From a phage: a stretch of DNA of 64,000 nt. Each line of letters starts with the position of its first letter. Position 1 is the first letter of the stretch. Under the pieces are notes generated by a model. The model ran no database searches. It was not told the DNA's origin and was given only the letters and a program-made list of their open reading frames with translations. The position numbers and the translations under genes were made by a program. Below are positions 3,676 to 63,736 of the stretch, piece by piece. The DNA is taken from sequence record NC_104726.1; one strand, 5' to 3'.

Positions 3676-4022
3676 AGAAGTGGATTGTGTGGCTTGATGA
3701 TTTTAGAGATCCGTCAGATTATGGACTCCCAGACGCTCTGTGGCTAAAGAATTCTTCTGAGTTTATGGATTTTCTTAATGATAAGAGAAAGCTCTACAGA
3801 CGCGTATCTGAGTGGTATTTTGACAATGATCTAGGTGAAGTGCTTGAAGGGTACGACTGCTTCTCTGCGCTAGAGGAGAAACTTGTATTCGGAAAGCCAC
3901 CACTTATTGACAACGTGATTATTTTCGTGCATACTTCTAATCCATCGGCAGCTCGTAAATTTATGCTTGCTGCTGACTCATTCAAGAAGTTTGGAATAGA
4001 GATTAAACAAAACATCTACTGA
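3672..4022 (+). CDS. hypothetical protein (116 aa)
   Basis: ORF overlapping upstream stop (ATGA); between RNA ligase and Sir2 genes. Confidence 0.5.
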   Translation: MKKWIVWLDDFRDPSDYGLPDALWLKNSSEFMDFLNDKRKLYRRVSEWYFDNDLGEVLEGYDCFSALEEKLVFGKPPLIDNVIIFVHTSNPSAARKFMLAADSFKKFGIEIKQNIY

Positions 4023-4030
4023 GGACACTT

Positions 4031-4805: not shown

Positions 4806-5519
4806 ATGCTGAATACTAAACTGATCGACAACCTGGAAAAACTGTCTCAGCCTGAAAACTACCTTTGGTCTGCCAACTGGGTGGAAAACTGGAACCGTGT
4901 GGCAGCTAAAGTGAAAAAATCATACACACCATTCGAATTACAGCTTAGCTTCATTGAGGAAGAGTTCAATGAGGTTTTGGAAGAGCTGGAGAAAGGTGAT
5001 GGTGGAGATCACCTGCTAAAAGAGGCCTGCGATCTTCACGTTGTCACAAGTTATGCCGCTTATCTTGTTAATGATAATCACGAAAAGTGGTCAAACCTGT
5101 TTGATAATCCACGAGGTCTTAAGTTCAAGATCGGTGAGTTCTATGATACACTGATCGCTGCGAAAAACACATCCAAGCAAAGAGCGTCAGCTTACCGCTT
5201 AGCGGAGTTGTCAACAGCTTTGCTGTTCCAGCTTCGCGGCGATGTGTGTGGGATGATGCGGAAGGTTCTCAAATCTAATGACAGCAAGTTTGCACGGATC
5301 AACCATCTACGATATTCTCACGGTGCCAGTGCAGATATGTCTACTGAATTGCTCATAGAGTTAGAGATTGAAGATCTTGAGCGTCGTTTTGGTGGTCGCT
5401 ACGAAGGTTTCGTTGCTAAAGAGGAGTTCTACAACGGTAATAAAGTTATTATATTCCTTGACAGTAAAGGTAAGATTATGAAGCCTTCGAGCTTCAAGGA
5501 TGTAACAGAGTATATTTAA
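4806..5519 (+). CDS. hypothetical protein, possible MazG-like all-alpha NTP pyrophosphohydrolase
   Basis: Acidic EEEFNEVLEELEKGD...KEACDL pattern resembling the MazG/HisE E-x-x-E metal motif; weak. Confidence 0.45.
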   Translation: MLNTKLIDNLEKLSQPENYLWSANWVENWNRVAAKVKKSYTPFELQLSFIEEEFNEVLEELEKGDGGDHLLKEACDLHVVTSYAAYLVNDNHEKWSNLFDNPRGLKFKIGEFYDTLIAAKNTSKQRASAYRLAELSTALLFQLRGDVCGMMRKVLKSNDSKFARINHLRYSHGASADMSTELLIELEIEDLERRFGGRYEGFVAKEEFYNGNKVIIFLDSKGKIMKPSSFKDVTEYI

Positions 5520-5890: not shown

Positions 5891-6146
5891 TCTTGCTAAA
5901 CCTGTAGAAGCACACCAGTTTGATGGAAGCTCTTCATCAGTATCTGATCTGCAACGGTGGATTGATACAGGTGTGTTTACATCGTCACCTGTTCGGACCA
6001 GAGATATTCGTCGCATGTGTGAGCTTGTTGAGCCGTTTGGCAACTTGGTTTTGTACCAGGGAGATTGGTTAGTTGACTTTATGGGAGACTGGTTGGTAAT
6101 GAGTAAAGAAGAGATGTTTAAAATTTTTAAGGAAGAGGCCGAGTAA
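5877..6146 (+). CDS. hypothetical protein (89 aa)
   Basis: ORF overlapping neighbours on both sides. Confidence 0.45.
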   Translation: MPLFNLAKPVEAHQFDGSSSSVSDLQRWIDTGVFTSSPVRTRDIRRMCELVEPFGNLVLYQGDWLVDFMGDWLVMSKEEMFKIFKEEAE

Positions 6147-10263: not shown

Positions 10264-11395
10264 AGAATATCCACTTATTGAGTCCATAGATTGTCTGGCT
10301 GATCTTCTTGAACCTGACGCTATAGTTTATTATGACTTCGATCAGGTTGCATATCAAGCTGCAGCAAGTTGTGAAAAAAGGACAATTGAGGTAACACACA
10401 AAGCCTCCGGACGTAAGAAGATGTTTAAAACACGAACAGAGTTCTGGGGGCGGCAGAAGAACACCGTTGGTGGTTGGTTAAAAGCTGAGAATACCAACCG
10501 TGAAGCTGCATGTAAAAAGGCTGGCAAGGAGTTTATTCCGTGGACACGAGAAGATTTCGATGTCTTGGATATCCAAACCCCTGATCCTGTAGAGAATTGC
10601 TTGCACACAATTAAGTGTAAAGCTAATGCAGTCCTTAATTATCTCGGTATTCCGGAAGATCGGTGCGTGGGGGTACTTGGAGGCACAGGTAATTTCAGAC
10701 TAGATCTTCCCATGCCGGAAAGATATAAAGCCAACCGTAACAATACTCTTCGACCACTGCTGCTTGGAGATGCAAGACAGTATCTCCAAAAGCAGTATAA
10801 TGCTCAAGTGATCAACGGTATCGAGGCTGATGACTGGTTAGCTATCCAGCAATTTGAAGGTTGGAACCACTACCAAAAAACAGGTAAGTTCAACAAGTTT
10901 ATTATCTCTATTGATAAGGACCAAAGAACACTACCGGGGCTTGTGTTCGATCCCATGCGAAACGATAAGGGAGATTTTGTAAGGGAAACCCCTATGCTGA
11001 TCGATAACGGTATGGGGAACATCTTCATGAAGCCTAATGGAGAGGTTGGTGGTTACGGAATGCTGTTCTTCGGATACCAAATGCTGTGTGGTGACTCTGC
11101 TGACAACATCAAGCCGTATCAAGGACTTATCGGTAAGGGTAAGTTCGGGGATGCCTCAGCATTCTACCTACTGTCTCAGTGCAGCACTCCAAAGGAGATG
11201 TGGGCGGCTATTATTGATCAGTACAAGAAGTGGTTCCCGAAAGGTGTTGTTAAGTATACTGACTTCAATGGTATTGATCGTAGAATTTCCGTAGGTCAGT
11301 GGATGAGTATAATTTTTGACTGTTTGTATATGAAGCGAACATTCAATGATCGAACAAAACTTGTTAACGTTCTTAGAAATGTTGGAGCAATTTGA
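10256..11395 (+). CDS. 5'-3' exonuclease / RNase H (FEN family, T4 RNase H-like)
   Basis: FEN motifs YKANR, EADD, GDSADNI; TTG start after AGGAGG. Confidence 0.8.
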   Translation: MSREYPLIESIDCLADLLEPDAIVYYDFDQVAYQAAASCEKRTIEVTHKASGRKKMFKTRTEFWGRQKNTVGGWLKAENTNREAACKKAGKEFIPWTREDFDVLDIQTPDPVENCLHTIKCKANAVLNYLGIPEDRCVGVLGGTGNFRLDLPMPERYKANRNNTLRPLLLGDARQYLQKQYNAQVINGIEADDWLAIQQFEGWNHYQKTGKFNKFIISIDKDQRTLPGLVFDPMRNDKGDFVRETPMLIDNGMGNIFMKPNGEVGGYGMLFFGYQMLCGDSADNIKPYQGLIGKGKFGDASAFYLLSQCSTPKEMWAAIIDQYKKWFPKGVVKYTDFNGIDRRISVGQWMSIIFDCLYMKRTFNDRTKLVNVLRNVGAI

Positions 11396-46941: not shown

Positions 46942-47226
46942 TTAACGGTTCACGTAAGTTTTCCCGTTCACGGTTATGGGCAGATCCTCCAGGTCTGGAT
47001 CTTCCTTAAGGTCGCGAGCAAGCTCACCGCACCGGATACCCTCGAATCCGTAGTACTCTGTTGTGCCGTCCTTAAAAGTTTTAGCGGCAAGGCATAAGCG
47101 ATAAGTAACCCCGATTTGATTGACGGCATGAATATCCGTTAGATTAACCTCTTTTGCCAGCTCTTTAGCCATTACAGGCGCATTAAGTCCAACAACCAGG
47201 GTAACCACTGCGATCATCTTTTTCAT
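46942..47226 (-). CDS. secreted/periplasmic protein with signal peptide (94 aa)
   Basis: N-terminal MKKMIAVVTLVVGLNAPVMA signal-like sequence; AGAGGATAGACA SD. Confidence 0.5.
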   Translation of the reverse strand: MKKMIAVVTLVVGLNAPVMAKELAKEVNLTDIHAVNQIGVTYRLCLAAKTFKDGTTEYYGFEGIRCGELARDLKEDPDLEDLPITVNGKTYVNR

Positions 47227-47317
47227 TGTGTCTATCCTCTTTCTGCTACGTTTAAGGCGGCGGTAACCGCCTGTTTATGCTTTGTTGGTTAATTTTCAGG
47301 TATCTGTGTAAATTAAA

Positions 47318-47533
47318 CTATGCTGTACGCTCAACTATAACAACGGTTTGGGGGATCTCCCCTTCCACCACTAGTAAGGCCTTTTTCTGCGTGATAGATA
47401 TCTTTACCCGTTGCAGCGTGGCGGTGAAGTCTTTCATTTCGTCACGCGGTGTTTTAGTGCAGTACCAGATCTCAGGCTTGCCGATCTGTAAGTTGCGTAA
47501 AAATTCCGTTTTGCCTGTTTTGTTAGTGATCAT
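47318..47533 (-). CDS. hypothetical protein (71 aa)
   Basis: ORF with SD GAGGTTGG. Confidence 0.45.
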   Translation of the reverse strand: MITNKTGKTEFLRNLQIGKPEIWYCTKTPRDEMKDFTATLQRVKISITQKKALLVVEGEIPQTVVIVERTA

Positions 47534-47542
47534 TTGCCAACC

Positions 47543-47647
47543 TCACCCGATACCGTTGGAAGACAAGATCATATTAGACATGGTTGCAATCAGGCCAATA
47601 CCCAGGGCAATAACCAAGATCACTGCATCGATTAATTTCTGTTTCAT
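47543..47647 (-). CDS. small membrane peptide (about 34 aa)
   Basis: Read directly: MKQKLIDAVILVIALGIGLIA...; AGAGAATAAACACC upstream; not in track. Confidence 0.3.
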   Translation of the reverse strand: MKQKLIDAVILVIALGIGLIATMSNMILSSNGIG

Positions 47648-47724
47648 GGTGTTTATTCTCTTCTGTTAGTAACCTTATTCATGGGGCCGCTACCACAGCC
47701 CCAGGGTAAGGCAGCTATGTGCTT

Positions 47725-48051
47725 TTAGTGTTTCATTCCAACCATCGCGGCACGGATCGCCGTAGTGCTGTACTTGAAGCCGTCCGGGGTCTTATCTTGT
47801 CCGGTTAGCTCCAGAAAAAGCATCATATCCCGCGCCGCATCATTACGATTAGCATTGGCGTTAATAAAGCCTTGGGCCAACCGGTACAATGACTCATCGT
47901 TATTAATCCAAAGGCTTACATTCCAATGAGTTTTGTTTTTGTAACCGTTATAACCTTTATTGCTTTTCATGATGTTTACCTCTTCTTTGTTCCAGGTGGC
48001 GGACCATTCCACCGCCTTATGTATTATGCTTTGTAAGATGGCTGTTGTCAA
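47725..48051 (-). CDS. hypothetical protein (108 aa)
   Basis: ORF with AGAGGTAAACATC SD. Confidence 0.5.
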   Translation of the reverse strand: MTTAILQSIIHKAVEWSATWNKEEVNIMKSNKGYNGYKNKTHWNVSLWINNDESLYRLAQGFINANANRNDAARDMMLFLELTGQDKTPDGFKYSTTAIRAAMVGMKH

Positions 48052-48057
48052 ACTATT

Positions 48058-48237
48058 TTAACGATAATCATCGTACGCTTTATTAACCTGGCGGATATAA
48101 CATTCAAAAGCCAGATCAATAGATTTATATTCACGGATATACTCACCATAGGAAACCACATACATTTCTATAGCTTCCTCATATGCGAGGAGAATAGAAT
48201 CTAAGCCTACGATCTCAGTCTTTGCAATAATAGCCAT
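48058..48237 (-). CDS. hypothetical small protein (about 59 aa)
   Basis: Read directly: MAIIAKTEIVGLD..., N-terminus similar to ORF at 48602-48886; AGAGGATAAAA SD; not in track. Confidence 0.35.
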   Translation of the reverse strand: MAIIAKTEIVGLDSILLAYEEAIEMYVVSYGEYIREYKSIDLAFECYIRQVNKAYDDYR

Positions 48238-48312
48238 GATTTTTATCCTCTTTGTAGTTGGTGGGGTTCGTTGCCCCCTCTGATTTATATATTACAGTCT
48301 TATATGGTCATG

Positions 48313-48546
48313 TCAACTATTTTCAAAAAATTTTTCTGCTGTGATATTCTTCCCGGTAGGGTTCGCTACTTTCAAAATTTTATCATGCACTGGACGCCCA
48401 AAAGAATAAGCGCCGTACACAGTAAACCAATAATCGCCGTCAGGTTGTACTATTACTGCCGCATATGGTACGCCTTTTTCGTTTTTGCTGACAAAATAGA
48501 TCACGTTGCCATTAATAGCCTCGGCGCGTTTAATTTGTTCCATCAT
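48313..48546 (-). CDS. hypothetical protein (77 aa)
   Basis: ORF with AGAGAGGCAAATC SD. Confidence 0.45.
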   Translation of the reverse strand: MMEQIKRAEAINGNVIYFVSKNEKGVPYAAVIVQPDGDYWFTVYGAYSFGRPVHDKILKVANPTGKNITAEKFFENS

Positions 48547-48601
48547 GATGATTTGCCTCTCTTTATTTTCATAATTGGGGGCCTTTTCGGCCCCGCCAGG
48601 T

Positions 48602-48886
48602 TTATTTATTGATAGCGTGCAGCGGGAAAGCTACGCCAGGTTGATAAATAACCTTTACAACCTCATCAGGACAAAAGAAGTTGCAGAACTCACCGCAATA
48701 GGCCTCATCCTCTTTCAACTCTTCATCAACATACTCAAAAAAGTAGTCGATGCTTGGATAATCCTGGCCGTGATTATAGTCAACCATCGTTAATAATAAC
48801 TCTTGATCATTCCGTAGGATGTGCATACCCGCTTTTAAGTATTTTGCTTCCATTTCTACTACATCGCCAGCGGTAATAATAGCCAT
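48602..48886 (-). CDS. hypothetical acidic protein (94 aa)
   Basis: ORF with AGGAGTTAAAATC SD. Confidence 0.5.
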   Translation of the reverse strand: MAIITAGDVVEMEAKYLKAGMHILRNDQELLLTMVDYNHGQDYPSIDYFFEYVDEELKEDEAYCGEFCNFFCPDEVVKVIYQPGVAFPLHAINK

Positions 48887-49088
48887 GATTTTAACTCCTA
48901 TCTATCTGGTCAACGATTGGGGGCCTCCCCCTCGACAACTCTTATTATCCATATTGTCGGGAATGATGCAAGTACTTCTTTAAAAATTTTTTAAGCGCCC
49001 CGTATGCCGTTGTAACGCCAAAATAATAAAGGCCATGCAACCGCATGGCCTTTATGTGATTATATTGCTGCAGGCCCTGCTAGGGGCC

Positions 49089-49439
49089 TTATTTTGCATT
49101 CTTGCCTGTATTGCCGCCACGGTACCAGCGTTTGCGGTGAAAATGGTAATAATCACCCTCGGCATTAAACATCAGATGATTTTCAATAACCAGCTTACGA
49201 AGGTGGGCCGGATCTTGTTCCATTCTTGCCAGATTCCGGCGGCTGTTACGTAAGCGTATAAATTCCATATTCAGGCCGTTGATTGCAGCATGGATGTCAA
49301 AGTAACCGCCTTTGAGACGTTCACGCATGGCGTTAAGCTCAACACAATATACAGATTTCTCACAAATCAAGGCATTAGCTAGGGCGCGGACCTGGGCAAG
49401 GGGGTTAAGCTCATTAAGGTAATATAGTTTGACTTTCAT
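49089..49439 (-). CDS. hypothetical protein (116 aa)
   Basis: ORF, basic C-terminus. Confidence 0.5.
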   Translation of the reverse strand: MKVKLYYLNELNPLAQVRALANALICEKSVYCVELNAMRERLKGGYFDIHAAINGLNMEFIRLRNSRRNLARMEQDPAHLRKLVIENHLMFNAEGDYYHFHRKRWYRGGNTGKNAK

Positions 49440-49456
49440 AAAATCGCCTGCTGAAA

Positions 49457-49756
49457 TTAGTTTGAGAAAACATCGTTCACAATAGCGATCACAATGCCGC
49501 CCACCTTGTCACGGTCAACAATGCACAAATCACCATGGATCATGCGGTAGTCTGGATGATCTTTCACAGAATAGTCAATAAGTGTTTTCTTGTCGTCCAG
49601 CTTCGTAACTTCCATTCTCATAACGATATGAGAATCATCAAAGGCATTATTCCGAAAAGTCATAGCCTGACCGCCAGGGCACCCGGTGATCTCCACTTCC
49701 ACACCATCTACGATCTGACCATCAAAGAAATAAAGATTATTAGCCTGGATAAACAT
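49457..49756 (-). CDS. hypothetical protein
   Basis: Start set to ATG (MFIQANN) 6 nt after AAGGAGTG SD. Confidence 0.5.
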   Translation of the reverse strand: MFIQANNLYFFDGQIVDGVEVEITGCPGGQAMTFRNNAFDDSHIVMRMEVTKLDDKKTLIDYSVKDHPDYRMIHGDLCIVDRDKVGGIVIAIVNDVFSN

Positions 49757-49802
49757 GTCTATCACTCCTTGTTAACTGCGTAGTATTTTAACAGGGTTTA
49801 AA

Positions 49803-49846
49803 TTTACTTTATTGATGGCCCTGGAGTCAAGGCCATCTAAAAATAA
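49803..49846. repeat. 44-bp repeated intergenic element, copy 1 (palindrome GATGGCC-N10-GGCCATC with embedded TTGACT on minus strand)
   Basis: tttactttattgatggccctggagtcaaggccatctaaaaataaa; near-identical copies at about 53544 and 54163. Confidence 0.7.
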
Positions 49847-49849
49847 ATT

Positions 49850-50050
49850 TTACAGGCCTACAATCTCTTTGATTCGTTTTACTGCTGCCTCAGCGCCTTG
49901 GGGGTAGAAATTATGGTAACCGATCACGCGAGTGATACTAATCGCAGTTTGATGATCTTCATAATAGCCCTTGAAGATTTCTTGACCGTCAATCAGCACG
50001 GCAATTTTTTCTTCTTTTTTGAAGTTAATAACGCGGATATTGTTGCTCAT
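49850..50050 (-). CDS. hypothetical protein (66 aa)
   Basis: AAAGGAGAAACAAA SD. Confidence 0.5.
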   Translation of the reverse strand: MSNNIRVINFKKEEKIAVLIDGQEIFKGYYEDHQTAISITRVIGYHNFYPQGAEAAVKRIKEIVGL

Positions 50051-50191
50051 TTTGTTTCTCCTTTCTGGTTTTTGTGTTGGTGGGGATTAGCTCCCCGTTG
50101 ATTATTATTATCCATATTTCGGACCGGATTGCAACACCCCGGAAGAAAAATTTTTTGAAAAAGTTAGGCCCCCAGGGATCGGGGGCCGTTA

Positions 50192-50311
50192 TCAGTTACT
50201 TACAGCGATAAAATACATCCCTACGCCTAACAATATTTCAAGGGCGATGATCTCAAGCCATACCATAACCCGGCGCACCTTATCGGTGCGGGGCTTATCC
50301 TTGGTTGTCAT
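50192..50311 (-). CDS. small membrane peptide (about 39 aa)
   Basis: Read directly: MTTKDKPRTDKVRRVMVWLEIIALEILLGVGMYFIAV; AGGGGGAG SD; start overlaps upstream stop (ATGA); not in track. Confidence 0.35.
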   Translation of the reverse strand: MTTKDKPRTDKVRRVMVWLEIIALEILLGVGMYFIAVSN

Positions 50312-50553
50312 CGTCTCCCCCTTTCATCCTGGTAGTAGTGACGTGGTTTACAATGGCCCCCAGGAGTACCATCACCACGCACATCACAAGAAAAATTATC
50401 TCTGTCGTTGTTCGATCCATTGTTATAAAATTCCTTAAGATCAGGCCTGAAAATAAAGCGTTCGTTATTGAATCCATCACGCCAGGCGGCTGGCTTCAAA
50501 TCTTCATCAAAGGGATTAATTAACGTGGTATTATTTAAACGGCTGGCCCACAT
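50308..50553 (-). CDS. hypothetical protein (start uncertain)
   Basis: ATG after GAGGAA SD; an alternative overlapping frame (50295-50420) encodes a hydrophobic 41-aa peptide with its own SD. Confidence 0.35.
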   Translation of the reverse strand: MWASRLNNTTLINPFDEDLKPAAWRDGFNNERFIFRPDLKEFYNNGSNNDRDNFSCDVRGDGTPGGHCKPRHYYQDERGRR

Positions 50554-50902
50554 ATTTTCTATTCCTCTCAAATAGGCGATCCGCCTCAGTTAAACAAATC
50601 TCATGGGCGTGATCTCTGGTTTTAGCTTCATCGAAAACCTGTTGTGCAAGGCTGCAGCGTAGGGAGACTGGAAGATCACTATAATAGGCGTTGACAAATG
50701 TTTGCGCGTCATACAGGTCGGAAAATACTTTACCCTTTCTATTATCGCCTTTGTCAACAATTGCAAGGATAACAAGTACAATAGTTGCAACCACCCCCAG
50801 GAAAATAGATATAATAAACCATAAAAAGGCGGATCTACCCATCTTGCCAGCGATCCAGGCGTTAAACAAGGCAACTAATACGGCCAAAATAATAAATTCC
50901 AT
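50531..50902 (-). CDS. membrane protein with two N-terminal transmembrane helices
   Basis: Start at ATG (MEFIILAVLVALF) after AAGAGG SD; second helix FLWFIISIFLGVVATIVLVILAIV. Confidence 0.5.
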   Translation of the reverse strand: MEFIILAVLVALFNAWIAGKMGRSAFLWFIISIFLGVVATIVLVILAIVDKGDNRKGKVFSDLYDAQTFVNAYYSDLPVSLRCSLAQQVFDEAKTRDHAHEICLTEADRLFERNRKYVGQPFK

Positions 50903-50966
50903 TCTATGTACCTCTTTTGCAGTTCTGTTTAACAATAAGGCGGCAAATATGCCGCCTGTTACCTGA

Positions 50967-51347
50967 TTAAAAATTATCGCCGTAAATCTTTCCGCTTTCT
51001 GCCCACACCACCACGCGGGGCATACTATCCCACACGTCTTGTTTTAGATTGAGCGCGTGCAATTCTTCAGTGGTGCCCATACCAGGCACGGGCTGATTGT
51101 ATACTGCAAAACGACCACCTGCATAATCATAGGCCAGGGTTAAATCACACTGAATCATCTTTTTGATCATGGCGTTGAGCATAGCGTTAGCCGCATACTG
51201 GTCACGTTTTAAAGGCAACTCTTTGATTAGTTTGCGATAGTTTTCAATGTGATCGCACACTGTTTCACGTGGAAGATCTTTCATATCCTCGCGAAAGGTA
51301 ACCAGGTTAAACATAACGGTGTCAATAGCTTTAGTAGTGTTTTTCAT
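50967..51347 (-). CDS. hypothetical protein (126 aa)
   Basis: AGAGGAAAACATT SD; leader hairpin. Confidence 0.5.
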   Translation of the reverse strand: MKNTTKAIDTVMFNLVTFREDMKDLPRETVCDHIENYRKLIKELPLKRDQYAANAMLNAMIKKMIQCDLTLAYDYAGGRFAVYNQPVPGMGTTEELHALNLKQDVWDSMPRVVVWAESGKIYGDNF

Positions 51348-51437
51348 AATGTTTTCCTCTTTGTTTTGTGTGGGGCAAACGTCTTGCCCCCCTTGAGTTT
51401 TAATATAGCAGGTTTTTAGATTATTGCAACACTTTAT

Positions 51438-52061
51438 TTATGAAAAACTCATCTCTCCATATTCATCCACATCAAACCGCCAATCATTGGCCTCAATAAG
51501 GCCGATCAGGTTTTCGGTAGTGAACTGTTCTAGATAGGCCTCCTCCAGGTCTACGTAAACCTTGCGGGATAGCTCCCGTACCGTCTCGGTGATCAGCTCT
51601 TCCAGGTCTTCCACTTTGTTTTCTTGTTTGGCGGTCAGATCTAGCCAGGTGGTATCAATGTATCCGCTTACAGTGTTTTCATGGCTGTAATGGCTGTACT
51701 TGTCGCGTTCAACACTGGCTGATAACTCGCCATCGTGCATTGTGCCGAACAAGTGACGAATTGATCGGAACTTGGTCAGGGCCTTTACTTTACGCAAAAA
51801 TTTTTCTAAATCCACGTTTTCAGCACTGATTGACGCGCCGTCACCCTGGCACCAAAAGCCGGACCAATGTACTTTGGTATCTTCAAGGCCGTACTCTGGA
51901 AAGATATATTCTTTGTAGTGTTCAATTACACTTTCTGCAAAAAAGTCATCCCCGCTGTGTTCTTCTCTTTCGCGTACCATTTCAATGGCTTTTTCTTTTT
52001 GTTCGTCGGTCAGCACGTCGAAAGATAAATTGTAACCTGTGGTAATGTTAACGGTGGTCAT
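51438..52061 (-). CDS. hypothetical acidic protein (207 aa)
   Basis: AGGAGAAAATATC SD; promoter and leader hairpin upstream; HWSGFWCQGDGA segment. Confidence 0.55.
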   Translation of the reverse strand: MTTVNITTGYNLSFDVLTDEQKEKAIEMVREREEHSGDDFFAESVIEHYKEYIFPEYGLEDTKVHWSGFWCQGDGASISAENVDLEKFLRKVKALTKFRSIRHLFGTMHDGELSASVERDKYSHYSHENTVSGYIDTTWLDLTAKQENKVEDLEELITETVRELSRKVYVDLEEAYLEQFTTENLIGLIEANDWRFDVDEYGEMSFS

Positions 52062-52118
52062 GATATTTTCTCCTGTTTTCTTTGTTAGTGGCGGTAAGTT
52101 TTCCCGCCTGTGTGTTTA

Positions 52119-52146
52119 ATTATACTTATTGAGATTTACTTGTCAA
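52119..52146 (-). promoter_or_regulatory. sigma70-type promoter on minus strand (TTGACA-16-TATAAT)
   Basis: Reverse complement reads ttgacaagtaaatctcaataagtataat; drives gene 51438-52061. Confidence 0.6.
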
Positions 52147-52396
52147 CACTATTTTTTAAATTATTGTGGCGCAAAATGTTTAAAATCTCCTCAACGTCAT
52201 CAACACGGCGGCAATTTTTAAACGCTACCAATTGCCCCATGATTTTAATCACTGGGCGGCCTTGCCAGTGCCCCTGGAGAAAGCGCGCCTTGACTTTATC
52301 GGTGGAACTATCACGCCACCAAATGGCCTTGTTGTTGCAGTAGTAAAAATTATTCAGGACAACATCAACTTTATCAAAATTTTTTAATTTACGCAT
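52136..52396 (-). CDS. hypothetical protein (86 aa)
   Basis: ORF downstream of the minus-strand promoter at about 52429-52456. Confidence 0.45.
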   Translation of the reverse strand: MRKLKNFDKVDVVLNNFYYCNNKAIWWRDSSTDKVKARFLQGHWQGRPVIKIMGQLVAFKNCRRVDDVEEILNILRHNNLKNSVDK

Positions 52397-52428
52397 GGCG
52401 TTTACGCCTTTCTCTCTTTGATGTGGTT

Positions 52429-52456
52429 AGTATAGCTAACCTGTTTAAGATGTCAA
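52429..52456 (-). promoter_or_regulatory. sigma70-type promoter on minus strand (TTGACA-16-TATACT)
   Basis: Reverse complement reads ttgacatcttaaacaggttagctatact. Confidence 0.55.
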
Positions 52457-52600
52457 GCTTTAAATAAAATCACTGTCAATGATATTTTTAACGCCATAAA
52501 ACGGCCCTAAGCGATGTTTTCAGGTTAAAGGGGGGCGATTGCATAGGTGGGGCCTTTTTGGCGCTTACAGGGCCAACCAGGGGCGCTATTCGTAGGATAG

Positions 52601-52629
52601 AAATAAAAAGCCCCGCACAATGGCGGGGC
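52601..52629 (-). terminator. rho-independent terminator (minus strand)
   Basis: gccccgc-acaatg-gcggggc hairpin followed on minus strand by tttttattt; just after the stop at 52638. Confidence 0.6.
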
Positions 52630-52637
52630 GTTGGTTG

Positions 52638-52859
52638 TTATTTGTCTTTATGGCGGTATCGTTCTGCCTGTCGTTCACGTTCCAAAAGTAGGCCAGGCAA
52701 TTTACGATCATAATGATTTCGCCAGATCTTTCCAAATCTTTTTGGCTTATTCAGTTTATTGTTACGCTGGCGTCGTTCCGGCAGCTCTTCGGAATCATGA
52801 GATCGCTTTACAATCTTCTCAAAATTAATCTTCATATATTCCCCCCTTGCTAACTTCAA
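52638..52859 (-). CDS. hypothetical basic protein (73 aa)
   Basis: ORF; Arg/Lys-rich. Confidence 0.45.
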   Translation of the reverse strand: MKLARGEYMKINFEKIVKRSHDSEELPERRQRNNKLNKPKRFGKIWRNHYDRKLPGLLLERERQAERYRHKDK

Positions 52860-53178
52860 TATTGGCCTGAATCGCCCGGATACGCCGTTTTATAACCTCC
52901 TGATCCTTGCAATCATATCCCCAAAAGTCTACGATTTTTGCGCCTCCAGCCTTTAGGCGGTATAGTGTTTCTTGCATCTTGTAAGCCGGGATCGGTCGCG
53001 GTGTTACCTGGTCTCCTTTCTCATCCTTGTACTTGATAATATAGTCTTCATTGTCGTTGAATACCCAAAATGGGTATTCTGTGAGCGCGTTGCTCTCTTT
53101 CTCGTTTTTAGATTGGATCTTGTTTACAATTAAAGCCGTAGCAATAGCGCCAATAATAAAACTAGCCCCGCTGATCAT
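52825..53178 (-). CDS. membrane-anchored protein (N-terminal TM)
   Basis: Start at ATG (MISGASFIIGAIATALIV) after AAGGAG SD. Confidence 0.5.
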   Translation of the reverse strand: MISGASFIIGAIATALIVNKIQSKNEKESNALTEYPFWVFNDNEDYIIKYKDEKGDQVTPRPIPAYKMQETLYRLKAGGAKIVDFWGYDCKDQEVIKRRIRAIQANIEVSKGGIYED

Positions 53179-53254
53179 GTTACTTTCTCCTTTCATGGTG
53201 TTAATAAACTATCTTTATAGATGGCCCTGCCACCAGGGCCACCGAAAAAACAGC

Positions 53255-53500
53255 TTATTTGACAATACCGACAAAACAGATCCCACCTTCCCCAACATAG
53301 GCGATGTCGGTAACCTTATAATTGGTTAAGATCTGCTTATTTAGTTCATTAATAAAATCGGTCATCGCGTTGGTGTAGTTGTCTTCCATGTCTAGGGAAT
53401 AATCCCAGGTGTAAACCTTTTTACGTCCGAAGCCTTTTACCATGATACGGGCGCTTTTGGTGTTGGTAGGGGCGTAATATTTGGTAATTAGTGCGGCCAT
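53255..53500 (-). CDS. hypothetical protein (81 aa)
   Basis: AGGAGTTAAAACC SD. Confidence 0.5.
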   Translation of the reverse strand: MAALITKYYAPTNTKSARIMVKGFGRKKVYTWDYSLDMEDNYTNAMTDFINELNKQILTNYKVTDIAYVGEGGICFVGIVK

Positions 53501-53543
53501 GGTTTTAACTCCTATGCATTAGTTCAGTGTTAACAGTATAAAG

Positions 53544-53587
53544 TTTACTTTATTGATGGCCCTGGTGTCAAGGCCATCTAAAAATAA
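53544..53587. repeat. 44-bp repeated intergenic element, copy 2
   Basis: tttactttattgatggccctggtgtcaaggccatctaaaaataa. Confidence 0.7.
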
Positions 53588-53589
53588 TC

Positions 53590-53931
53590 TTACTCGTTTT
53601 CTTCCAGCTCCGCAAGCTCTTCTTTTGCTTCTTCCAACTCTGTCTGTAATTCCTGGTATTCTTCATCGTCCTCAATATCCAGGCTGTCGATGTAGTCGCT
53701 AAATCCGCAGCGGTAAGCGATAGGATCTAGCTCCTTGAGGATACGCGACGGAAGAAAAGAAATGTTTCCGATCATAATTTCGCCGTAGATCTCGTCTAAC
53801 CATTCATCATAGTTTTCGTCGTACTTGTCCTCGTCGATTTCAAAGTTATCGATCTTGTTCTCAAGGTCTGCGATCTGTTTTTTCAGCGCGGCGATCTGCA
53901 TAGCTTTATCTGCGGCGGTCATAGTAGTCAT
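53590..53931 (-). CDS. hypothetical acidic coiled-coil protein (113 aa)
   Basis: AAGGAGAAAACACC SD; D/E-rich. Confidence 0.5.
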   Translation of the reverse strand: MTTMTAADKAMQIAALKKQIADLENKIDNFEIDEDKYDENYDEWLDEIYGEIMIGNISFLPSRILKELDPIAYRCGFSDYIDSLDIEDDEEYQELQTELEEAKEELAELEENE

Positions 53932-53981
53932 GGTGTTTTCTCCTTTTGTGTGTTCTGGGAAGTTTTCCCGTTTATGTGGTT

Positions 53982-54009
53982 AGTATACTGATCTAAGTTA
54001 GCTTGTCAA
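53982..54009 (-). promoter_or_regulatory. sigma70-type promoter on minus strand (TTGACA-16-TATACT)
   Basis: Reverse complement reads ttgacaagctaacttagatcagtatact. Confidence 0.55.
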
Positions 54010-54129
54010 TTAAAAGTTTAAGAAAAATTTTGCGATACCGTTGGCGCTACCCATCAACATTTGCGCCAGGATGTAACCAATGATGCAAACGATAATAGTT
54101 ACCTTTGTGTGCTGGCGTGTAGTACTCAT
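54010..54129 (-). CDS. small membrane peptide (about 39 aa)
   Basis: Read directly: MSTTRQHTKVTIIVCIIGYILAQMLMG...; AAGGGGG SD; not in track. Confidence 0.35.
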   Translation of the reverse strand: MSTTRQHTKVTIIVCIIGYILAQMLMGSANGIAKFFLNF

Positions 54130-54162
54130 CTTTAAGCCCCCTTTCCGCTCAACTGTGGTTAG

Positions 54163-54207
54163 TTTACTTTATTGATGGCCCTGGAGTCAAGGCCATCTAA
54201 AAATAAA
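54163..54207. repeat. 44-bp repeated intergenic element, copy 3
   Basis: tttactttattgatggccctggagtcaaggccatctaaaaataaa. Confidence 0.7.
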
Positions 54208-54208
54208 C

Positions 54209-54604
54209 TCAGTAAGTTTTCAGTACTTTCCCGTCCAATCTGTCAAGCTGGATCTCGATAGCTGCAGAAAACCTATTATAAACCACATCGCCCATGGAGT
54301 CCAGCCAATCTATGACGTTATACACCTGCTCTTTATTCTTGCAAGTCCGGATCCGTTTCATTACGTAAGACGGATCAATATTAGTGCTCTCGTTGTTGTG
54401 GTCATGCGCCTGGCCTGCTGCATTAGCTATAGATTTTACAACCACCTGAAAGGGCTTTAAGGTGCCTTTTGCGTTCATCTCACGCGCTTTTGCGGCGCGG
54501 TTGTTATATGTTACACAACGGCGGCAAATGTTGACCAAATGCATATCAATAATTTTTTCATCGTTTGCCAGTTCGTTCATGATGCGGCGTACGTTCTTAT
54601 TCAT
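54209..54604 (-). CDS. hypothetical protein (131 aa)
   Basis: AAGGAAAAAGATC SD; leader hairpin ggcgggaa...ttcccgcc upstream. Confidence 0.5.
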   Translation of the reverse strand: MNKNVRRIMNELANDEKIIDMHLVNICRRCVTYNNRAAKAREMNAKGTLKPFQVVVKSIANAAGQAHDHNNESTNIDPSYVMKRIRTCKNKEQVYNVIDWLDSMGDVVYNRFSAAIEIQLDRLDGKVLKTY

Positions 54605-54688
54605 GATCTTTTTCCTTTGTGTTGGCGGGAAACATTCCCGCCTTTTGTGTCTAGTTTACTTTAATTTTGCAGCGTGTCAATAATTTTT

Positions 54689-55087
54689 TTATTCGTGGGC
54701 ACATGTTACAATGTGCTTTTTATAGCCTAGGTGGTTAGCAAGTGCCGACAAAAACTCTTCTTCATAGATCCAGCCGTTGGCAGTGATCCCCATAGCATTT
54801 AATGCGCTCTCAAGTGCTGCGTTAGCTTTATCATAACCGTGACCGCTCGCCTTGCCGCCAGTATAACCGTACTTATTGTTCTTGTTGTCGTGCATCCAAA
54901 AAACGCAGTAGTTAGTGTTACCGCTGGCGGCGGCATAGTACCGGATCTCCGCTACTTCGTGCAAATTATTATCATCGTCCAGGCCAACCAGATTATAAGC
55001 CTTGTAAAATCCACGATCACGGCGGCAGTTCTTGACATCAGAAAAAGAGAAGTCGGCATTATCAAAATTAAAGGTAGTGGTTTTCAT
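54689..55087 (-). CDS. hypothetical protein (132 aa)
   Basis: AAGAGGATAAAATC SD; promoter upstream. Confidence 0.5.
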   Translation of the reverse strand: MKTTTFNFDNADFSFSDVKNCRRDRGFYKAYNLVGLDDDNNLHEVAEIRYYAAASGNTNYCVFWMHDNKNNKYGYTGGKASGHGYDKANAALESALNAMGITANGWIYEEEFLSALANHLGYKKHIVTCAHE

Positions 55088-55119
55088 GATTTTATCCTCT
55101 TAGTGTCTTTTGCGATTTC

Positions 55120-55148
55120 AGTATATTTTGTGTCAGACCATATGTCAA
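55120..55148 (-). promoter_or_regulatory. sigma70-type promoter on minus strand (TTGACA-17-TATACT)
   Basis: Reverse complement reads ttgacatatggtctgacacaaaatatact. Confidence 0.6.
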
Positions 55149-55150
55149 CA

Positions 55151-55348
55151 TTATTTTTTATTAAACCAGTGGTTGATCTGACCTTTTGTCAGGGCGCAAC
55201 GGTTAAGCTGTTGCAGGGTATAGCTATGACCGCGACGAAATTTATAAAGGCCTTGCCCGTTGTTGATGGTTACATCCACCCGGCAAATCACTTGATTGGT
55301 GACCACCTGGCGAGTGTTGCGACGTACTTTAATTCCGTAGGCGTTCAT
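55151..55348 (-). CDS. hypothetical protein (65 aa)
   Basis: GAGAGGATAAAAAATC SD. Confidence 0.45.
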   Translation of the reverse strand: MNAYGIKVRRNTRQVVTNQVICRVDVTINNGQGLYKFRRGHSYTLQQLNRCALTKGQINHWFNKK

Positions 55349-55426
55349 GATTTTTTATCCTCTCTGTTAATTGGTGTGGTGTTGTTCACCTTGCGAGGAT
55401 AAGAATAACAAGAACTGTCCGAGCTG

Positions 55427-55609
55427 TCAACCATTAGTTAAAATTATTTTTGGGTAGAATTCTCCAGCCGCCGCCCCTGCCAGGTTAACCATCATTTTTT
55501 CGTACTCTTCTTTATGTTCCAACGCTCCCGCCATAGCCTTTTCAACCAGGGCGATAGCCTCAGCGTCATTAATAGCTACATTTTCCAGGGGGATCATATT
55601 ACCTTCCAT
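55427..55609 (-). CDS. hypothetical protein (60 aa)
   Basis: GAGGAGGTACAAAA SD. Confidence 0.45.
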   Translation of the reverse strand: MEGNMIPLENVAINDAEAIALVEKAMAGALEHKEEYEKMMVNLAGAAAGEFYPKIILTNG

Positions 55610-55869
55610 TTTTGTACCTCCTCTTCAATTGTTACCTATCCTATAGCATAGGCCCACCAGGTTTGCAAGCCTTCATTATCTCCTACCTGGTCAGTTAGGC
55701 CCTGCCAGGCTGGCCCCGCCAGGTTGCAGCGGTCAGCGCATCAGGTTAGAATTTTTTTTTTGAAAAGTGTTGACAGCGGCCCCGCCAGGTGGCAAAATAT
55801 ACCTATCGAAAGGACGGCAGGCACCGGTGACGGGGGAGACAACCACCGGGGATGGGCGCTGCATGAAAT

Positions 55870-55889
55870 GAGAACGATTATCATTATCG
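55870..55889. promoter_or_regulatory. Fur-box-like palindrome (GAGAACGATTATCATTATCG)
   Basis: Hexamer-repeat structure close to the GATAATGATAATCATTATC iron-box consensus, downstream of a GC-rich hairpin. Confidence 0.4.
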
Positions 55890-56005
55890 TCTAAAAATTT
55901 ATGCAAAAACTTCTTGCTTTCTTTGTCCTGTGTGTTACTATAATAACAAGCCGGGGCAGTAGGGGCCGGGAGACAATCACCGGGCCTGCCCGTTATTCTG
56001 CAAAC

Positions 56006-56022
56006 GAGAATGATTATCATTC
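56006..56022. promoter_or_regulatory. Fur-box-like palindrome (GAGAATGATTATCATTC)
   Basis: Second copy in an imperfect about 90-bp direct repeat of the preceding element. Confidence 0.4.
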
Positions 56023-56135
56023 AAAATTCTAAATGAGAACTCCTCGCATTTAATAAATTTAATTAGCACGCTAATTACCCTCCGTAACAATTTCCTATAA
56101 AATAGTATCCACTAAAATATTCCCATATAGAAATT

Positions 56136-56320
56136 TTAAAAATCCATTTCTGAAAACGAAAAATCGATTTCGTCCCCAAAAATTTCAGGCCAAGAGCCGG
56201 AGCGATTTCCAGAAAATCCGATTCAGAAAACGAAAAACAGATCAAGTACTGAGAAATTTATCGAGAAAAATTTTCAGAAAATCCAAGCCCTGAAATGAAA
56301 AGTAGATCGAGTACCTGGAA
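56136..56320. repeat. three imperfect about 40-bp A-rich direct repeats (AGAAAATCC...TGAAAACGAAAAA...GAT...)
   Basis: Units starting near 56139, 56212 and 56277 with 65-73 bp periodicity. Confidence 0.55.
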
Positions 56321-56626
56321 AGCTGCACCGCAACTTCAAGATAGTGGTTAGATTGTTACCATAGAAGGTCAAGGGTAAGTGGAGGAAGTTCTAGTAGAGG
56401 GAGGTTAGCATGTGTGGGAAATCTATAATGGTGGCCTGGAATATGGTGCAAACGATAGGATGAGTTATTCAGCTTGTCGCGCCTACTCTGAAAAATCCAT
56501 TTTAGTTTTCGATCCATTTTCTGATTTTCTAAGAATTTTAAAATATCTGGCCCGGTGAAATATCAAAAGGAGGAAATCCATTTTAGAAATCCCCCTTATA
56601 CTTGATATGCCAGGAATTTTCAAGTA

Positions 56627-56956
56627 TCAGCTGTCTTTGTTTTTAGGTTTGTACATGCGCAGAGGTATGGTCTTTGTAACATTCCATTTCCTCAACCCTT
56701 CCCAGCTCCAGTTGTGGGCGTGATACCCGGTTATGCATGCACTGCTGGCGTGATCATAAGCATAAGAGAACGCTATGTGCACCAGGTGGGGCCAGTCCTT
56801 CCACGGCTGTGGACCGTAAGCCTTTCTCCAACACCGACACAAACTAATTGTCTCAAGAATAGGGAGAATAACAATTCCATATACCACCACCAGAATGGTC
56901 AGTGCAATGATTGTCAGGAACACATACCCTGCAGTTGAAATGATGATCTCTGTCAT
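56627..56956 (-). CDS. membrane protein (109 aa)
   Basis: Two N-terminal hydrophobic helices; AAAGGGGA SD. Confidence 0.5.
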   Translation of the reverse strand: MTEIIISTAGYVFLTIIALTILVVVYGIVILPILETISLCRCWRKAYGPQPWKDWPHLVHIAFSYAYDHASSACITGYHAHNWSWEGLRKWNVTKTIPLRMYKPKNKDS

Positions 56957-57156
56957 TTGTCGTCCCCTTTCTTACGAATATAGATGTGAGAGCCTGCCTG
57001 TATATAAATTTCTCGACCATCCTCTGCAAAGATATGAAATACACGATCACCTTCGTACTCGATACGAGATATCTTCATAATGGTCTTTCCACCTGGGATA
57101 CGGATCTCGTCCCCCACAGCGATGTTCCATGCAGATTTAAGCTTAAACATCTGCAC
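56953..57156 (-). CDS. hypothetical protein (67 aa)
   Basis: AAGGAGGGTGCAG SD; ATGA overlap with downstream gene. Confidence 0.5.
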   Translation of the reverse strand: MQMFKLKSAWNIAVGDEIRIPGGKTIMKISRIEYEGDRVFHIFAEDGREIYIQAGSHIYIRKKGDDK

Positions 57157-57388
57157 CCTCCTTTGGGAACTTGAACTCTGGCATAGCCATATACGCTACA
57201 ACAGGGTTGTGATCAAAGTAGAACTGACCGTTAATTATCCCGGTTTTGTCCACATAGTTACCAGATCCTGCAAGAACAACCTCGCAAGCTCCGAAATCCA
57301 CATTGCCATCCTCATCAGCCATGGCTACGATATACTTTCCAAGAGGCATGTTTTTAACGCCGTCTACAAATGTCCACTCTGTGTTCAT
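57143..57388 (-). CDS. hypothetical protein (81 aa)
   Basis: ORF in tightly packed operon. Confidence 0.45.
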   Translation of the reverse strand: MNTEWTFVDGVKNMPLGKYIVAMADEDGNVDFGACEVVLAGSGNYVDKTGIINGQFYFDHNPVVAYMAMPEFKFPKEGADV

Positions 57389-57397
57389 ACTTTACCC

Positions 57398-57730
57398 TTA
57401 AGGTAGCCAGTAAACAATCTCGCCTTTCAGCTTCATATCGTTTCCAACATAAATTTCCCAGCCATCCATCTTAGCAACTGTAGGCCCAAAGTCATCCGCA
57501 CCCCTTACCTCTTTCCAGGCTCCGTAGTCAGGTTGCCAGATATAGAATCCACCTTCTTTGTCCCATGCTCCGTACACTACGTTTAACAGGTTTCCCATTG
57601 CAACAATGGTGGGCCGTGGGAATAATACATCTACAGATGCGCCACAATTTCGGGTATCTTTTAAGTTGCAATCCCAAAAGATGTCTGCCAGTGTGGCGGC
57701 GATAGCTTTACGTCTTTCCAAAGTTACCAT
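57398..57730 (-). CDS. hypothetical protein (110 aa)
   Basis: ORF in tightly packed operon. Confidence 0.5.
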   Translation of the reverse strand: MVTLERRKAIAATLADIFWDCNLKDTRNCGASVDVLFPRPTIVAMGNLLNVVYGAWDKEGGFYIWQPDYGAWKEVRGADDFGPTVAKMDGWEIYVGNDMKLKGEIVYWLP

Positions 57731-57740
57731 GGCACGATAC

Positions 57741-57932
57741 TCACTTGTTGTTAAGAAGTTCTAAAACTTTCTGTTTTACTTTATCAAGATCTGTTGATTC
57801 AAAAACTGTGCGATATCCCCAACTTTGCCCGTAGGAGTGACTGCAATCCCCGTAGCACCATTGCTCAATTTGATAGTATTCAAGGAAGGGGTGCTGTCTA
57901 ACTATGATACCATCCCGGTTAAAAATTACCAT
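57741..57932 (-). CDS. hypothetical protein (63 aa)
   Basis: ORF in tightly packed operon. Confidence 0.4.
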   Translation of the reverse strand: MVIFNRDGIIVRQHPFLEYYQIEQWCYGDCSHSYGQSWGYRTVFESTDLDKVKQKVLELLNNK

Positions 57933-57995
57933 AATACATCACTCTCTGTTAGTTTATGCATATATTATACACTGCAGTTTTCAGATGTCAATCTT

Positions 57996-58247
57996 TTACA
58001 GGTTACTCCAGTATAATCGGCATTTACATTTTGGGCAATGAGGTTCTTTTATGTAATAACCATCAGTCTTTGGAACACTTTTTGGTGCAGTTTTAAGATT
58101 GTACCGAGTAAAACACCGGAAGCAGGTTACCTCTCCAACCTGTTGATCGTTTATCCACTCGCCAGAGTAAAGCTCTCTCTTGTTTCTCATAATTCTCTCC
58201 CAAATCCTCTGCAATCTTATACCAAAATCTCCAGCCAGAAAGCACAC
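57996..58247 (-). CDS. small zinc-ribbon protein
   Basis: CFRC...CPKCKC cysteine pairs. Confidence 0.45.
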   Translation of the reverse strand: MCFLAGDFGIRLQRIWERIMRNKRELYSGEWINDQQVGEVTCFRCFTRYNLKTAPKSVPKTDGYYIKEPHCPKCKCRLYWSNL

Positions 58248-63419: not shown

Positions 63420-63736
63420 GCTTCCTCGTCGTCTAAGGAGTTGAAGATTTCACCGAAATATTCTAAGACTTCTAGCTCTCGTGTGGTGCAGAAAACACAG
63501 TCACCGTTGTCATCCTCGATAACGGCCTCTTTACCCAGCACATCTACTTCAAGTTTATCGTTCAACAGGACGGCCCCTGTGTAAACTTTGTCAGCTGTGC
63601 AGTCCCGAAAAGCAGAGTCCTTCTCTAGATAGTCTGGCTTAACCTTGGCTTTAATTCGTTGATATTGTTTGGTCATTGCTGTGGTCCCCTTTCGTTTTGA
63701 TAGGACCATTGTATTAGGTCCTATCGCTGTTGTCAA
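63416..63736 (-). CDS. hypothetical protein, paralogue of 63740-63994
   Basis: Shared DSAFRDCT / DRAFKDCT block and Cys spacing. Confidence 0.5.
   Translation of the reverse strand: MTTAIGPNTMVLSKRKGTTAMTKQYQRIKAKVKPDYLEKDSAFRDCTADKVYTGAVLLNDKLEVDVLGKEAVIEDDNGDCVFCTTRELEVLEYFGEIFNSLDDEEA

Follow-up and report, generated by a model that had tools for sequence, protein, structure and literature searches.

Promoter-early stem-loops (PeSLs) have been described in the T4-like myoviruses RB49/phi1, PST/T4 and nt-1/KVP40 (Arbiol et al. 2010, PMC2839356; Comeau et al. 2014, PMC4122927). They are defined by an upstream stop codon in an AT-rich tract, sigma-70-like promoter boxes, a stem-loop, and a Shine-Dalgarno sequence with a start codon. 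The stem-loop, of which five subclasses are distinguished, may overlap the -35 or the -10 box, and G-T pairs occur in it. PeSLs are concentrated in hyperplastic ORFan regions, with indels and replacements at the motifs, and their terminator activity, promoter strength and mini-circles have been shown experimentally (PMC2839356, PMC4122927). In the literature searched, no PeSLs were reported outside T4-like phages and cyanophages. Here we describe a repeated intergenic element in phage sequence record NC_104726.1, of which a stretch of 64,000 nt was analysed as a whole (hereafter the window; all positions refer to it). The window belongs to an rV5-like coliphage (Vequintavirus), and more than 100 rV5-like coliphages match its bases 49000-55500 at 95-97% identity. 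The early-region genes lie on the minus strand here and form a long run of small early open reading frames (ORFs). With a probability of roughly 0.6, we consider the element in this run to be a PeSL-type composite of promoter and stem-loop that also serves as a recombination linker.

The element has all sequence-level features of a PeSL, while activity is known for PeSLs only. A stop codon lies in an AT-rich tract, sigma-70-like boxes follow, a stem-loop with a G-T pair spans the -35, and a Shine-Dalgarno sequence with a start codon stands at the 3' end of the motif. As with PeSLs, multiple copies occur in a hyperplastic region of small early ORFans, and indels or replacements between close relatives fall on the motifs and leave chimeric motifs at their junctions. 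The phage studied here, a Vequintavirus, is not T4-like, which we take as the scope of the earlier descriptions and not as a matter of mechanism. Where PeSLs follow a loose consensus, three of the copies here match almost completely over about 50 bp. The stem has the form GAUGGCC.../...GGCCAUC instead of G(n)/C(n), and the T-tract, the -35 and the -10 are all enclosed in a single bipartite hairpin of about 20 bp.

That the element is real and non-random was confirmed. A first-pass annotation of the window had reported three near-identical copies of a 44-bp sequence, and these were recovered: the 44-mer TTTACTTTATTGATGGCCCTGGAGTCAAGGCCATCTAAAAATAA is present exactly at 49803-49846 and 54163-54206, and with one mismatch at 53544-53587. 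It was absent from 100 dinucleotide shuffles. We refer to the three as E1, E3 and E2, respectively (Table 1). Each 44-bp copy starts 1-3 nt past a minus-strand stop codon, in agreement with the annotation, and is separated from the next minus-strand start by 33-46 nt, a gap somewhat below the 40-80 bp that had been given. Read in the sense direction, the stop codon is followed by the T-rich tract, GATGGCCTTG-ACTC-CAGGGCCATC and AATAAAGTAAACT, and then by GGAG or AGGGGG and ATG (a Shine-Dalgarno sequence and the start codon, the latter 33-46 nt past the element). A genuine fourth copy, E4, had been overlooked, as had the long bipartite hairpin described below. In all four copies the upstream stop codon (TGA or TAA) is located 1-3 nt before the T-rich tract or inside it. 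The site at about 54653 that had been listed as a degenerate fourth copy has only TTGAC and the AAAGTAAACT -10 region in common with the element. Lacking both palindrome and fold, it was rejected as a family member and is an ordinary promoter, P194 of rV5.

The RNA of the sense strand folds into a two-helix hairpin in all four copies. The upper stem consists of 10 bp formed by GAUGGCCUUG and CAGGGCCAUC, including one U.G pair, and is closed by a 4-nt loop. Across a 2x3 internal loop, the T-rich flank pairs with the A-rich flank in a lower A/U helix of 7-10 bp; the whole sense-strand hairpin is thus bipartite, with about 20 bp. The annotation had instead drawn a 7-bp palindrome with TTGACT in its 10-nt loop, a description that has to be revised, as TTG belongs to the stem and ACT to the loop. 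Folding energies of the four copies ranged from -21.1 to -29.4 kcal/mol (z -5.8 to -6.8), and those of E1-E3 from -21.1 to -25.1 kcal/mol (z -5.8 to -6.5). The antisense strand did not go beyond -15 to -17 kcal/mol, as A.C mismatches arise there in place of the sense-strand wobble pairs. In E4, GGUGGCCCUG-GUGG-CAGGGCCAUC stands atop a 12-bp lower helix, which retains the two-helix architecture of E1-E3 with a different lower-helix sequence. Each upper stem also contains a Dcm/EcoRII site (CCAGG on the sense strand at 54181-54185, 53562-53566 and 49821-49825; CCTGG in E4 at 53226-53230). This site is probably not essential, since some relatives lose it through the loop variant ACTT, which gives TCAGG.

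The hairpin was rejected as an intrinsic terminator. The terminator scan called none of these sites, and the folds place no U-tract behind either helix on either strand, which bears out the earlier statement that the repeat is not a canonical terminator in either direction. The sense strand carries the T-run ahead of the stem and an A-rich run behind it. The upper stem is followed by AAUAAAG and the lower helix by AACCAC, UUUAUAC or UUAAAC. The intrinsic terminators t177, t181 and t184 of rV5 resemble the element in having a GC-rich stem-loop right after a stop codon, but differ from it in the U-tract. Canonical terminators do occur elsewhere in the same region. Rfam 15 covariance models, run against 47000-58000 at E <= 1, gave no match at the elements.

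Conservation of the structure was assessed in an alignment of 45 copies (31 distinct) from the window and 13 further loci. Among the distinct copies, 98.1% of the pair cells held standard pairs (99.7% in the upper helix); shifting the 3' partners by 1-3 columns as a control reduced pairing to 33-58%. Four lower-helix pairs were changed on both sides, for example from A-U to U-A or from U-A to C-G, and three upper-helix pairs varied only via G.U. Counted on the antisense strand, 86.5% of the cells were paired. On the sense strand, G.U was found at six pair positions, and two positions at the helix base showed A.C in some copies. Because of this G.U strand bias, and because the E4 hairpin is kept by compensatory changes, a single-strand (RNA) structure is favoured over a duplex operator. 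The identity of the element among genomes was 94.4-99.5%, compared with 86-94% in the 160 nt of mostly coding flank on each side, and this held in all four slots. The evidence for structural conservation is good but not conclusive, and the element is very probably functional.

The sequence of E1-E3 indicated a host-type promoter. A consensus scan returned TTGACT or TTGACA, an 18-bp spacer and TAAACT, with TAAATT as the -10 of E1. The upstream sequence is A/T-rich, with a T-rich tract at about -45 to -53 relative to the putative start. In 33 copies of E1-E3 from 14 sources, TTGAC was invariant, the loop bases A and C included, whereas all four bases occurred at the sixth -35 position and C or T at the next loop base. 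The promoterless E4 has no -35, and its loop varies among genomes at almost every position. A TTGAC that is fixed in E1-E3 and a loop that is free in E4 would be expected if the -35 and the hairpin were selected independently. The AAAGTAAACT -10 region is also present in rV5 P194 and in phi92-like promoters at the orthologous slot, and the E2 orthologue in GenBank MT682716 is annotated as a promoter by PhagePromoter. The rV5 promoters P192 and P194 (Kropinski et al. 2013, PMC3606486) share with the element the strand, the intergenic slot before small early genes, TTGAC and the A/T-rich upstream tract, and P194 also shares its -10 region (PMC3606486, Table S4). They differ in their spacers (16-17 bp, compared with 18 bp in the element), and only the element has its -35 enclosed in a palindrome. 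The annotation had offered a protein-binding site, a regulated promoter or a recombination hotspot as possible roles. The promoter half of the second suggestion agrees with the TTGACW-18-TAAACT arrangement, the invariant TTGAC, the PhagePromoter call and a promoter replacement in phage KKE7M (see below), whereas regulation found no support. A protein-binding site, which may still exist, found none either; the better pairing on the sense strand (98.1% compared with 86.5%) and the hairpin kept by the promoterless E4 favour an RNA structure. Promoter activity and the role of the hairpin in RNA are inferred from these patterns, and E1-E3 are best regarded as candidate promoters.

Recombination at the element was directly visible in relatives, as anticipated by the hotspot suggestion, both as a 619-bp deletion that leaves a chimeric element and as a cassette transfer across subfamilies. 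The unit from E3 to E2, which comprises one element copy, the 39-aa ORF, P192 and the 113-aa ORF (Table 1), is missing in three sources, ECP26 (MK883717), magaca (MN850612) and IMG/VR contig 2051223002_000007. In these, the 131-aa gene runs straight to the 81-aa gene, and the alignment blocks overlap within the element. Their single remaining element is chimeric, with an upstream flank of E3 type and a downstream flank of E2 type. The deletion is bounded exactly by the two copies, and the breakpoint lies inside the repeat, where it is not placeable more finely. Since flank and loop variants differ among the deleted relatives, there may have been more than one deletion event. The 113-aa cassette was found in 114 records and the element in 120. 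Variants common to copies of one genome (two in E3 and E2 of V18, one in E2 and E1 of rV5) suggest gene conversion. Gene-size indels were also found elsewhere in the region: V18 lacks the 116-aa ORF (49089-49439; indel at 49099-49449), about 290 bp (47664-47956) is absent from ECP26, V18 and WalterGehring, and an overlapping but larger stretch of about 445 bp (47598-48043) is absent from magaca.

The cassette transfer involved KKE7M (PQ356295), a phi92-like phage of the genus Justusliebigvirus in another subfamily, Stephanstirmvirinae. KKE7M shares the 113-aa ORF with its expression signals and E2 (Table 1), whereas its own relatives cover only 79% of the cassette neighbourhood. The homology ends in promoter sequences at both sides, with the left junction in the promoter spacer/-10 and the right junction in AATAAAGTAAA of the element. 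At the same slot, a single undivided promoter, TTGACAagataactaaaatcagTAAACT, precedes the downstream gene in muut, and PD114 carries another ORF cassette with TTGCAA-16-TAAACT behind it. In KKE7M, the element takes the place of the native TTGACA-16-TAAACT promoter of the downstream gene and now provides the putative -35 for this phi92-type gene. With its junctions in promoter sequence, the cassette was transferred from -10 to -10, conserved promoter sequence serving as the homology. KKE7M and the window have another block in common (48056-48249), which spans exactly one ORF between two promoters. Further ORF-sized blocks of KKE7M were found at 3754-4087, 5271-5464, 5995-6086 and 11114-11393, with 74-93% identity to the rV5-like early region. 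These blocks suggest that early ORFan cassettes have passed between the two subfamilies repeatedly. For ORFs 205, 206, 209 and 210 of rV5 (DQ832317), the depositors record similarity to hypothetical proteins of RB49. As RB49 is T4-like and was the first PeSL phage, this similarity would fit a common pool of early ORFan cassettes.

Copies of the element are confined to the early ORFan region. With filters off, a covariance model built from the four copies detected no others in the window. The genome-wide count proposed in the first-pass annotation gave exactly four sites in the complete genome MH752840 (134.6 kb), every one of them sense-oriented and located within a 4.4-kb part of the same early ORFan region. 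About 120 phage records carry the element, mostly in three near-identical copies. In IMG/VR, the pattern was present in two contigs only, both rV5-like. It was absent from 185,579 representative bacterial and archaeal genomes, and a host origin or an element resembling a miniature inverted-repeat transposable element was rejected on this basis. Among the GenBank records, seventeen unannotated 'Campylobacter phage' entries (MG0656xx, marked UNVERIFIED) are 93-97% identical to rV5-like coliphages. Other 'Campylobacter phage' records of this series match phi92-like coliphages, and the host labels look doubtful.

Combining these observations, we propose that the element would act at three levels. 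In duplex DNA, the T-rich tract, TTGACW, the 18-bp spacer and TAAACT or TAAATT would form an early promoter for host sigma-70, and the mRNA of the downstream small early gene would start just past the hairpin. As the embedded promoter would start past the hairpin, the latter should be present only in read-through RNA from upstream. In such read-through transcripts, the two-helix hairpin of about 20 bp would fold, beginning at the upstream stop codon. There its role may be to set or insulate the upstream message's 3' end, through attenuation of read-through, a block to 3' exonucleases after cleavage, or both. Finally, the copies act as homology linkers at which recombination deletes, inserts and transfers single-gene cassettes with their own expression signals, as the genome comparisons show. 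This last role follows from the copies being near-identical direct repeats of about 50 bp with a -10 region common to rV5-like and phi92-like early promoters. A more far-reaching variant, to which we give only a small chance, is that the hairpin is no passive insulator or linker but a specific recognition structure, for instance for a phage nuclease, a recombinase or an RNA-binding early-shutoff factor, or that the promoter depends on extrusion of a cruciform or hairpin. If so, promoter activity, RNA fate and targeted cassette mobility would be coupled in one element, and rV5-like and phi92-like phages would have dedicated, site-directed cassette exchange instead of chance homologous recombination.

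Several observations weigh against a PeSL-type function. The attenuator role is the weakest step, because the hairpin has no U-tract and canonical terminators occur in the same region. The promoter itself is not ideal, with an 18-bp spacer, a -10 hexamer matching at four of six positions and a consensus match of 9/12 (9-10/12 across copies). The 33 promoters listed by the rV5 authors (Table S4), who report host-type promoters only, do not include these three sites (PMC3606486). A literature search for transcript maps or 5' or 3' ends of rV5-like phages found none. On the structural side, the independent covariation events are few, mainly between E4 and E1-E3 with a few within E4. The bias for G.U over A.C, about six positions to two, is only suggestive, and in some copies the lower helix is not perfectly paired at its base. 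A tblastn search with the flanking 131-aa protein found no relatives outside Vequintavirus; as this protein is bound to the genus and IMG/VR added two contigs only, the covariation evidence stays shallow. The high conservation could also have arisen from gene conversion instead of selection. Finally, the E3 orthologue of Gotham (MT682716, locus positions 1146-1222) has lost 5 nt of the 3' arm (TTGACTCCA-ATCAATAAAG), so that the hairpin can no longer form and the spacer is reduced to 13 bp. Either a single copy is dispensable or the assembly is in error at the hairpin.

Four other explanations were weighed against the composite reading. The early genes of T7 are separated by conserved RNase III hairpins with two helices, an internal loop and no U-tracts, and E. 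coli RNase III requires a minimum of about 20 bp of double-stranded RNA. The element could likewise be a processing hairpin for RNase III or another endoribonuclease in polycistronic early RNA, leaving a protective hairpin at the upstream 3' end, with the hexamers secondary or incidental. It reaches the minimal length in two coaxial helices (10 + 10 bp) with an asymmetric 2x3 internal loop, which is necessary for such a substrate but far from sufficient, and it lies exactly between cistrons, from the stop codon on. The missing U-tract and the hairpin kept in E4 without a promoter also fit. However, the invariance of TTGAC in E1-E3, loop bases included, and its loss in E4 would be left unexplained. 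No Rfam family matched, recognition by RNase III is not reliably predictable from sequence, and the T7 sites show no sequence relation to the element and have no promoters. We therefore regard processing alone as unlikely, although it overlaps in part with the hairpin step proposed above. An operator, in which a dimeric phage or host regulator would bind the inverted repeat GATGGCC-N10-GGCCATC over the -35 and switch the three early promoters off (or on) jointly, would account for the perfect 7-bp repeat centred on the -35 of three near-identical promoters and for a stem sequence strongly conserved across about 120 genomes. The symmetry, however, is strand-biased (98.1% compared with 86.5%): every departure in the upper helix is a G.U pair on the sense strand and thereby A.C on the other. 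A second helix, formed by the A/T flanks and showing compensatory changes, continues this symmetry, and in E4 the palindrome persists with no promoter to regulate. The half-site centres are 14-17 bp apart, which would be neither one nor two helical turns. No cognate regulator was identified, and the neighbouring ORFs contained no DNA-binding domains in PHROGs or Pfam. An operator thus appears improbable.

It is likewise quite unlikely that the element is an ordinary promoter with a chance palindrome copied along with the cassettes, in which case the likeness of the copies would stem from recent duplication or gene conversion and the hairpin would be a by-product. The family is indeed shallow, with one genus, one transfer and four copies within 4.4 kb, there are signs of gene conversion, and Gotham tolerates a broken E3. 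Against this, E4 has diverged in both helices and lost the -35 while its pairing was kept by double and G.U changes, the intergenic elements exceed the adjacent coding sequence in conservation in all four slots, and an unrelated early promoter of the region (63699-63736, described below) also lies in a hairpin with a compensatory change. The embedding of a promoter-like sequence in a palindrome is further reminiscent of phage N4, whose early promoter hairpins have 5-7-bp stems and 3-nt loops and form on the template strand. A hairpin promoter of this kind for a phage RNA polymerase, or a supercoil-dependent cruciform promoter, is nevertheless extremely unlikely here. Of the two strands, it is the non-template one that forms the better hairpin, and the stem has 10 bp. 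The hexamers fit host sigma-70, and the complete relative MH752840 has no annotated RNA polymerase gene; the N4-type promoter was rejected on stem and loop geometry, strand and this missing annotation. The rV5 paper, too, reports host-type promoters only (PMC3606486).

If the composite reading holds, PeSL-type linkers would operate outside T4-like phages and would mediate both the loss of cassettes within a genus and their transfer from Vequintavirinae to Stephanstirmvirinae. The rV5-like phages are widely used in phage typing, biocontrol and therapy, and about one third of their genome is taken up by small early ORFs without assigned function, a set that is not the same in all isolates. The linkers offer a concrete mechanism for this isolate-to-isolate variation, and they are natural insertion points at which a gene could be added or removed with its own expression signals. 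For a group without a transcript map, the analysis adds a conserved RNA structure open to testing and three candidate early promoters missing from the published list.

Table 1. Copies of the element, associated signals and neighbouring features in the window
Feature	Position	Strand	Details
Copy E3	54157..54212	-	Full bipartite hairpin with embedded putative promoter; -25.1 kcal/mol, z -6.1, 79.8 bits; between 131-aa ORF (stop codon 54209-54211, in helix base) and 39-aa ORF
E3 -35-like hexamer	54185..54190	-	TTGACT; TTG in upper stem, ACT in loop
E3 -10-like hexamer	54161..54166	-	TAAACT; in 3' strand of lower helix
Copy E2	53538..53593	-	Between 113-aa acidic ORF and 81-aa ORF; -21.1 kcal/mol, z -5.8, 80.3 bits
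E2 -35-like hexamer	53566..53571	-	TTGACA
E2 -10-like hexamer	53542..53547	-	TAAACT
Copy E1	49797..49852	-	Between 66-aa ORF and 99-aa ORF; -23.6 kcal/mol, z -6.5, 81.9 bits
E1 -35-like hexamer	49825..49830	-	TTGACT
E1 -10-like hexamer	49801..49806	-	TAAATT
Copy E4	53203..53258	-	Diverged, hairpin only, no -35 hexamer; -29.4 kcal/mol, z -6.8, 70.9 bits; between 81-aa and 123-aa ORFs; found by GGCC-N10-GGCC search
619-bp unit	53588..54206	-	One element copy, 39-aa ORF, P192, 113-aa ORF
Cassette shared with KKE7M	53538..54010	-	P192 spacer and -10, 5' untranslated region, 113-aa ORF, E2; 94% identical to KKE7M
Promoter P192 of rV5	53982..54009	-	TTGACA-16-TATACT; left border of the cassette shared with KKE7M
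Promoter P194 of rV5 (Table S4)	54653..54680	-	Ordinary sigma-70-type promoter TTGACA-16-TAAACT, no palindrome
Stretch of small early ORFs	49457..54604	-	Contains all four copies; function unknown
ORFs adjoining the copies	54209-54604, 54010-54129, 53590-53931, 53255-53500, 52825-53196, 49850-50050, 49457-49756	-	

All ORFs adjoining the element fall in PHROGs of unknown function, and none matched a Pfam domain. A common intergenic layout was observed in the early stretch, consisting of a stop codon, TTGACA-16/17-TAxxxT, a GC-rich hairpin in the 5' untranslated region (5'UTR), a Shine-Dalgarno sequence and ATG. A second, unrelated early promoter in a hairpin was detected at 63699-63736 on the minus strand (TTGACA-17-TACAAT). 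Here a 9-bp stem with the arms GATAGGACC and GGTCCTATC holds the -10 in its loop. Pr121LW has GATAGGGCC and GGCCCTATC at the same place, a compensatory double change relative to the window (GGGCC/GGCCC to GGACC/GGTCC). Given this promoter and the common layout, composite promoter-hairpin motifs are a general feature of the region, of which the element studied here is a subclass with three near-identical copies. The GC-rich 5'UTR hairpins (e.g. GGCGGGAATGTTTCCCGCC) were located downstream of many early promoters, at 54624-54642 and 53956-53970 in the window and in the intergenic regions of a relative. The same promoters are followed by a conserved ribosome-binding context, ACAAAG(A/G)GG. These hairpins may be 5'-end stabilisers or another PeSL subclass.

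Two further features were noted at the divergent edge of the early region and beyond it. A 17-nt motif, GGCCC(N)GCCAGGT(T/G)GCA, occurs in four copies within 150 bp by this edge (55651-55794), and its GGCCCTG part is similar to the stem of the hairpin element. The adjacent 850 bp or so (55800-56650) contained no convincing ORF and probably correspond to the 'non-coding' box of the rV5 paper. No Rfam match was found in this interval. It carries three repeats of about 52 nt spaced 65-74 nt apart (56131-56321), others at 55866/56002/56031 and 55834/55968, and long-range inverted repeats, and could be an origin of replication or contain non-coding RNA genes.

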